Shown one piece after another: positions 2,995-4,290 of a DNA stretch of 64,000 bases. The translations under genes were made by a program, and so were the position numbers. The first letter of the stretch is position 1. Every line of letters starts with the position of its first letter. Where the stretch lies: assembly GCF_029227855.1 (NCBI RefSeq), contig NZ_CP074356.1. The stretch is one strand, 5' to 3'. The notes beneath the pieces are model-generated. The model did not search any database. It worked only from the letters and a program-made list of their open reading frames with translations, and was not told the origin of the DNA. Source of the DNA: Escherichia coli. GTDB lineage: Bacteria > Pseudomonadota > Gammaproteobacteria > Enterobacterales > Enterobacteriaceae.

Positions 2995-4290
2995 TTACCT
3001 GTTTTCCCATAATTTCAGCATCGCTTTGTGCTCTTCCTTAAGCACAATCCGCGAGCGTCTGGCTCGAATATAACTAATCGCTTCATCAACGGTTTTACAA
3101 TGTCCGTAACATAACAGCCATGCCCCCACTACCAGCGCACTGCGCGATAATCCCAACGCGCAATGGACCAGAACGCTGCCTTGCTCTTCGCGTAATGTTT
3201 CCAACATCGCCACGGCCTGTCGGAGCTCCCCCTCTTCCGGAACCACCAGATCCAACATCGGTACACAAAAATAGAGTCGATCTTTTGTCGCTCGTCCGCG
3301 AGGGAATTCAAAGGTGACGTCCAGAACCGCATTCTGTGCCGGAATATGTCGTGGAAACGCCCCTAAATAAACACCAGCAGTAATTTTGCTCACCGGCTCC
3401 AGGCGAAGGCAAACCAACGCATAGACAGCCACATCCCGATGCGCCATGGCAATGTCAGCCAGTAAACGGCGGGCGGGAGTTTCCCTTGACTATCTTTACC
3501 TGTTGTTATCGCGCCAAGCCCACCGTACCCACGGCCAATAATGAGTAGCGATAATACTGGCCAACATAACCAGACTGACCACCATAACTGAAGCATTATC
3601 ATTAGCTCCATCAACACGAGCACGCGCCTGCGACATATGGCAGTGCTATTTTGATTCGACGTTGATCAGGTTTCTGATAATTCCAACGACGGTCTACGGG
3701 CACCATCCAGTCAATTAACATACCTACCGCCAGCCCTGTGATGACATCAATAAAATGATGCTGCCAGGTCGTCAGCGTCGAAATGGCGATGAGTAAAAAC
3801 CATCCGCCGCAGACTTTACGCCACCTCACAGCCAGATGCTGACGAAAGTGACGCCAAAGTAGCCAGCAGAGAATAATATGCAGCGAAGGAGACTGGTTAT
3901 AAGGCAGATCAAACAATTCAAGTTGCGAAAATAACCATCCTGTCACCCCACTCACTTCAGGACGGATAAAACTAAACTTCAGCGGGTAGAGAAAAAACCG
4001 CAGCAGGCCATTACCGTTGCCAGAATAAGCCGGTGGACCAGACGGCGCTGCTCAAATGTCGAGCTACAAACGAACAGCGAAAATCCATATAAAAGATCCA
4101 GACTCCAGTAAGGAACAATAGTCCAGGGAAGAAAAGGGATCGCCGTTTCCCAACCGAATACCTGACTGGGGATATCATGGTTGTTAAGATCCTGAGTCGC
4201 GGTGAATTGATTAAGAAATCCATATGTGAAGAAGAAAAACGGGGCCAGCAACAATAACCAGCCAGCTCCTTGTAGTAATACGTTCCGGCG
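2995..4290 (-). pseudogene. ynbD: ynbD-like membrane-anchored dual-specificity phosphatase, reading frame broken by three +1 frameshifts
   Basis: Four consecutive minus-strand ORF pieces (3979-4377, 3611-3955, 3390-3623, 2995-3447) in frames 0/1/2/0; last piece carries the CX5R phosphatase motif [10 protein letters not shown]; first break is at an A6 run (3992-3997) where one extra base fuses pieces 1 and 2. Confidence 0.6.

Follow-up and report, generated by a model that had tools for sequence, protein, structure and literature searches.

The window, i.e. the whole stretch of 64,000 nucleotides of the Escherichia coli contig NZ_CP074356.1 (assembly GCF_029227855.1) that was analysed, carries ynbD, the last gene of the ynbABCD operon, on the minus strand at 2995..4302, an extent that follows the PGAP annotation of the near-identical genome JNEC-KY178 and the alignment to intact alleles. 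The gene is flanked by ynbC (4292-6049, minus strand) and azoR (2336-2941, plus strand). YnbD is a non-essential inner-membrane protein with two phosphatase domains, a PAP2 lipid-phosphatase domain at its N-terminus and a dual-specificity phosphatase (DSP) domain of the CX5R type at its C-terminus; in intact K-12 YnbD, which comprises 430 amino acids, Pfam places PAP2/PAP2_3 at residues 74-198 and DSPc at residues 306-429 (E = 2.6e-27). A reading made from the window's sequence only (hereafter the sequence-only reading) had noticed that the roughly 430 codons of ynbD are split into four consecutive minus-strand ORFs in frames 0, 1, 2 and 0, and the ORF list indeed contains them at the same coordinates (3979-4377, 3611-3955, 3390-3623 and 2995-3447).

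In its position the locus corresponds to the YnbD orthologue, as it follows ynbA-ynbB-ynbC and is convergent with azoR in the annotations of both JNEC-KY178 and K-12, and it is collinear with K-12 ynbD over its full length, the alignment having three gaps only. Refilling the 9 missing bases yields an open 430-codon frame without any stop that differs from YnbD of E. coli 042 in 5 residues and from K-12 YnbD in 20. The repaired protein is thus like K-12 YnbD (b1411, NP_415929.1, PGAP 'phosphatase PAP2/dual specificity phosphatase family protein') in length, synteny and the presence of both PAP2 and DSPc, whereas the actual frame, unlike that of K-12, is broken at three places so that no full-length protein is possible, and the TTG start reads TTA. 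The uninterrupted frame that would make the locus a functional YnbD member is absent, given three frameshifting deletions and a PGAP pseudogene flag. NCBIfam has no YnbD-specific model, its sole match being a sub-threshold one to PRK12361, and an Rfam scan of 2995-4302 returned no RNA family.

When positions 2900-4400 were compared by megablast with 5,426 complete E. coli genomes, a single match of 100% was obtained, JNEC-KY178 (NZ_AP045174.1), followed by 19 next-best matches at 99.1%, all of them from swine or swine ETEC isolates and including two of serotype O139:H1; the features beneath the match are ynbC, ynbD and azoR in all genomes. The alleles closest to the window (swine ETEC, 042) show 95.8-96.1% DNA identity to K-12 over the same 1.5-kb stretch. 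In JNEC-KY178 ynbD is annotated by PGAP as a pseudogene ('frameshifted'), i.e. the frameshift was already flagged in a near-identical genome, and the broken ynbD is not new but already known in kind. In annotation the locus is best treated as a single pseudogene rather than as four hypothetical ORFs; beyond this, the finding is of little importance.

The three lesions were defined by alignment with the intact alleles of K-12, 042, KE55 and NRZ14408 and with other broken ynbD alleles. They are deletions of 1, 7 and 1 bp, respectively. Lesion 1 (3992..3997, minus strand) is a 1-bp deletion at nucleotide 288 of the gene (codon 96), 5 codons upstream of the PAP2 motif C1 (KFSFIRP), where the window reads GGTTTTTTCTC and thus has a run of six T (T6). 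At this site the run of intact length is T7 in 042, KE55, GMF065, A0 34/86 and TCM3e1, and T6G in K-12 and the swine lineage. Lesion 2 (3615..3618, minus strand) is the junction of a 7-bp deletion of GTGCATT (nucleotides 663-669, codons 221-223) between GTG direct repeats, by which GCTC-GTGCATT-GTGTTG has become GCTCGTGTTG, putting TGT TGA directly downstream in the true frame. Lesion 3 (3411..3413, minus strand) is a 1-bp deletion that shortens a T4 run to T3 at nucleotide 874 (codon 292), shortly before the DSP domain.

Alignment of the locus with the intact alleles of K-12, 042 and KE55 bears out the frame breaks, and all three lesions lie within the ranges that the sequence-only reading had proposed for read inspection. 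Its A6 run at 3992-3997 was correctly located, as one base added there joins the first two pieces without a stop, and the stretch of 26 residues that it gave for this join is contained in the repaired translation. Its description of the breaks as three single-base frameshifts holds for lesions 1 and 3, which have lost 1 bp each, but not for the middle lesion, which the alignments show to be a loss of 7 bp; the frame arithmetic nevertheless worked, since 7 = 1 (mod 3) and a 7-bp loss shifts the frame just as a 1-bp loss does.

As a consequence of the lesions the two domains of YnbD have different fates. Like the PAP2 lipid phosphatases PgpB, YbjG and LpxT, YnbD has the C1-C3 motif region (Fig. 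1A of PMC7413402; Pfam PAP2, PAP2_3), but unlike these it carries an additional DSP domain. Piece 1 (3979..4302 of ORF 3979-4377, minus strand) comprises YnbD residues 1-95 followed by the out-of-frame tail FSTR* and is devoid of any PAP2 catalytic motif. Piece 2 (3611..3955, minus strand) corresponds to true-frame residues ~110-220 and contains C2 (PSLH) and C3 (HHFID), as read from the sequence with Fig. 1A of PMC7413402 as a guide, but not C1, and would need its own initiation. Piece 3 (3390..3623, minus strand), according to the ORF list and its translation, covers true-frame residues ~224-291, i.e. the membrane linker joining both domains. The three motifs that characterise the PAP2 superfamily (PF01569 / PF14378), C1 (K..RP), C2 (PSxH) and C3 (H..D), are therefore not found together on one polypeptide, and no fragment has a complete PAP2 site, because piece 1 ends 5 codons before C1 and the ORF with C2 and C3 begins after it. 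Piece 4 (2995..3447, minus strand), an ORF of 150 amino acids, starts with 12 out-of-frame codons and then encodes the complete DSPc domain (PF00782) with the HCX5R(S/T) loop; the CX5R motif HCALGLSRS that had been described as intact in the last piece is present. The DSP domain is thus whole, but the ATG of this ORF at 3447 exists only in the shifted frame, no Shine-Dalgarno-like sequence was seen in the 15 nucleotides before it (by eye, unscored), and this ATG is a chance by-product of the frameshift. YnbD function is expected to be lost in this strain, judging from the predicted products. The genes ynbA, ynbB and ynbC are translated without stops, and no polar effect is expected, because the operon ends with ynbD and azoR beyond it is convergent.

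A further difference from K-12 concerns the start codon. In the window, TTA stands in place of the annotated TTG start of ynbD (4276-4278, minus strand), a change that is also present in 24 other genomes. The two TTA genomes that were inspected have no other defect in the ORF, and PGAP sets its start at a GTG 8 codons upstream that overlaps the stop of ynbC; this in-frame GTG (4300-4302), together with the open frame behind it, is kept in all 10 loci compared. We did not accept the TTG to TTA change as a fourth lesion, for which there is no proof given that the upstream GTG is conserved and the ORFs of the two inspected TTA genomes are otherwise intact. Going by this conservation, the change is probably not inactivating, and the upstream GTG may be the true start of ynbD.

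The relationship between the window and JNEC-KY178 extends well beyond ynbD. Both are collinear over positions 1-41991 with four substitutions only (7215, 23071, 23294 and 40092), and their ynbD sequences are identical, with all three lesions in both. At 41991, inside ttcA (41942-42877 in the window), the sequences diverge: in JNEC-KY178 sitABCD and a lambdoid prophage are inserted in ttcA, whereas in the window ttcA is intact and followed by dbpA, zntB and abgRABT, a gene order that equals the uninterrupted locus of GF60. Because there are 4 SNPs in 41,991 bp and the ttcA prophage is found in JNEC-KY178 only, the two are separate records, and therefore the window and JNEC-KY178 represent two separate records of one clone, i.e. 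sister isolates. The annotation of JNEC-KY178 had brought up two candidates at 42-64 kb, a frameshifted lom gene and the remnant of a prophage, which were rejected; since the sequences diverge at 41991 the lom pseudogene is absent from the window, whose ORFs in that region are abgA/abgB.

To follow the individual lesions through the 5,426 complete genomes, short queries centred on each of them were used, every 28-mer seed being forced to span the lesion. Lesion 3 was found in 21 genomes, namely 19 from swine (ETEC, O139:H1 and related isolates), JNEC-KY178 and GMF065, lesion 2 in JNEC-KY178 only, and the T6 state of lesion 1 in 32 genomes that fall into three sequence backgrounds (JNEC-KY178, A1.S1.160 and the E. 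coli 536 group). In public assemblies the exact 150-aa product of lesion 3 occurs on 183 contigs (234 blocks), and those of the assemblies that were read (6 places, 24 contigs) have ORFs of 290 and 150 amino acids and contain T6G and the 7-mer, lesions 1 and 2 being absent. As 21 genomes and many public assemblies carry the same state, lesion 3 is an established lineage polymorphism. An exact-sequence look-up of pieces 1-3 in a collection of 15 billion proteins gave no match, and thus no further isolates with all three lesions.

The sequence-only reading had left two explanations side by side, a decaying pseudogene and a locally low-quality stretch of the assembly. If the latter applied, some or all of the indels would be false, and the gene would be intact or would carry the lineage-wide lesion 3 only. 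Such an artefact of assembly or base calling would fit the location of two of the three lesions in T runs, the classic site of indel errors in long reads, and lesions 1 and 2 occur jointly only in the window and JNEC-KY178, i.e. they are supported by two assemblies of one clone that may come from the same laboratory and sequencing platform. Nevertheless, the two distinct records show the same deletion at each of the three sites, and lesion 3 recurs in 20 other complete genomes and in many Logan assemblies that derive from Illumina data. Lesion 2, a loss of 7 bp between GTG repeats, is no homopolymer miscall, and such a microhomology deletion is not typical of the errors expected of base callers. 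The T6 state of lesion 1 also occurs in E. coli 536, a reference genome of long standing; for this lesion alone, a systematic miscall at the T run is formally possible.

The surroundings of ynbD speak against the artefact as well. Over 25 kb the window differs from KE55 by four indels, of which three are the ynbD lesions and the fourth is a single intergenic base at 11121, so that no further coding indel is present, and simple arithmetic gives a probability of ~5e-4 that at least three of four uniformly distributed events fall within 1.3 kb of 25 kb. Moreover, the other coding sequences of the window contain 52 homopolymer runs of at least 6 bases, eight of them of at least 7, all in frame. 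The statement that no other gene in the 64 kb is broken was borne out by the PGAP annotation of JNEC-KY178 and translation of the SNP-bearing genes (1-41991) and by the comparison of 23 genes with GF60 (40000-64000), and with this intactness and the clustering the view that random error is a poor explanation for three breaks within 1.3 kb stands. Hence, of the two explanations originally offered, the pseudogene is supported by the shared lesions and the second record, while the evidence argues against low quality; we regard an artefact as highly unlikely and, as far as assembled sequences can tell, take the ynbD lesions to be real mutations and not assembly noise.

The distribution of the lesions also suggests the order in which they arose. 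They are nested, as expected for stepwise decay, with lesion 3 in 21 genomes and lesion 2 in one, and the comparison with close relatives that had been recommended earlier shows the swine lineage to carry lesion 3 only and JNEC-KY178 all three. The ynbD of swine ETEC and O139:H1 isolates (e.g. CFSAN018748, NZ_CP028192.1), likewise annotated as 'frameshifted', resembles that of the window in the T4 to T3 change at nucleotide 874, but has this one lesion, resulting in the 290-aa and 150-aa ORFs, whereas the window has two more. From nucleotide 289 to the stop codon ynbD of the window equals the swine allele, indels aside; the first 288 nucleotides contain four substitutions relative to it, of which three are synonymous and the fourth affects the annotated start codon. 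In the simplest history lesion 3, which the swine ETEC / O139:H1 lineage also has, would be the oldest and would have been followed by lesions 1 and 2, because it is common to a lineage whose examined members carry neither of the other two. The deletions may be used as markers, one for the lineage common with swine ETEC O139:H1 and two for this clone.

It is uncertain whether lesion 1 originated by slippage from T7 or by loss of the G from T6G, the latter being the state of the nearest lineage. The flanking SNPs did not reveal which of the two, T7 or T6G, is ancestral, as the locus is a recombination mosaic. In a comparison of window positions 1-25000 with KE55 the SNP density was itself found to be mosaic, with 15-40 per kb from hrpA to ydbD (0-8 kb) and ~0-1 per kb in the paa operon (12-22 kb), which indicates putative recombination tracts.

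The ynbD of uropathogenic E. coli 536 and its relatives, also annotated as 'frameshifted', shares with the window the 1-bp loss in the T run at nucleotide 288, but lies in a different background without lesions 2 and 3, and the event is apparently independent. The recurrence of the same loss in three backgrounds suggests that the T run at nucleotide 288 may be a recurrent mutational hotspot. It could also be read as the mark of a phase-variable or recoding switch, in which slippage or programmed frameshifting turns ynbD off and on rather than the gene being lost, the identical loss in 32 genomes being in line with this. Yet 6-7 T are short for a contingency locus, the T6 state is found in just ~0.7% of the genomes that carry ynbD, and in this strain two further lesions lie downstream, so that reversion of the run would be useless; a switch has practically no probability.

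Thus, ynbD of the window is, on the comparison of alleles, very probably a genuine pseudogene in stepwise decay. We propose that decay would have begun with the loss of 1 bp in the T4 run at codon 292, which would part the PAP2 from the DSP domain, after which selection on the reading frame of ynbD would have been gone. This clone would then have gained the 7-bp deletion between the GTG repeats at codons 221-223, of the kind that replication slippage or microhomology-mediated deletion typically produces, and, in a further step, would have lost 1 bp from the T7/T6G run at codon 96. The outcome is a locus that encodes no complete PAP2 site and in which the DSP domain is left only as a frameshift-born ORF, so that YnbD function would be lost.

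The first of these steps might, however, have split ynbD into two genes instead of merely breaking it: after lesion 3 the 150-aa ORF could be translated as a soluble dual-specificity phosphatase so that some function is kept, and the PAP2 half alone would decay. If this were true, the fission would detach the C-terminal CX5R phosphatase domain from the membrane, and a widespread E. coli lineage would both express and retain the 150-aa fragment. The ORF with its ATG, complete DSPc domain and intact CX5R loop would allow this; the missing Shine-Dalgarno-like sequence, however, does not favour translation from 3447, and as this ATG lies 57 nucleotides upstream of the stop of the preceding ORF, translational coupling is unlikely. 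The fragment is unchanged across hundreds of assemblies, but with 0 SNPs across it the lineage is too young for its persistence to signal selection. Similarly, both later lesions of the window lie in the N-terminal half, but with just two of them their location has no statistical weight. We consider fission extremely unlikely and retain the stepwise decay of the whole gene as the preferred reading.

Loss of ynbD agrees well with what has been reported on the operon. YnbD does not complement mutants lacking C55-PP or PGP phosphatase activity and has no assigned function or substrate, and both a ynbD deletion mutant and a strain without all four PAP2 genes are viable (PMC7413402). A ynbB knockout grows like its parent strain (PMC6362211), and the ynbA promoter needs BglJ-RcsB, the heteromer that activates the H-NS-repressed bgl and leuO loci (PMC3950696). 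Among the 5,426 complete E. coli genomes ynbD is present in 4,620 and missing from ~15%; in an evenly spaced sample it has its full length of 1,293 nucleotides in 57 of 60 cases. It is annotated as frameshifted in E. coli 536, A1.S1.160 and GMF065, breaks that, to judge from the alleles, are apparently independent. Taken together, this is what one expects of a dispensable gene on which selection is weak. The absence of ynbD from many genomes and its independent breaks fit the lack of a laboratory phenotype, and suggest weak or niche-specific selection on the uncharacterised ynbABCD lipid-metabolism operon. In E. coli 042 ynbD is intact, while ynbA and the 5' end of ynbB have given way to an IS1 element, which represents another route of operon decay. 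Public E. coli assemblies commonly contain C-terminal YnbD fragments with the DSP domain only: in addition to the 150-aa product of lesion 3 (P0001, on the 183 contigs given above), a DSP-only fragment that results from the same lesion in another background (P0003) is found on 323 contigs, and an in-frame DSP-only fragment of 142 amino acids with a different upstream break (P0004) on 279 contigs.

Several further features were noted elsewhere in the window. Between pdxI and paaY an IS200C transposase gene (11232-11690, minus strand) adjoins a match to the Rfam family STnc490 (11700-11823, minus strand), and the sole indel outside ynbD relative to KE55 (11121) lies just beside this stretch. Three small RNAs score above the Rfam gathering threshold, i.e. 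MicC (39732-39847, minus strand), FnrS (44644-44761, minus strand) and McaS (48139-48234, plus strand), all in their usual K-12 neighbourhoods. Finally, pgrR (59801-60700) is intact in the window, whereas in GF60, the closest relative in that region, it is one base shorter and annotated as frameshifted.
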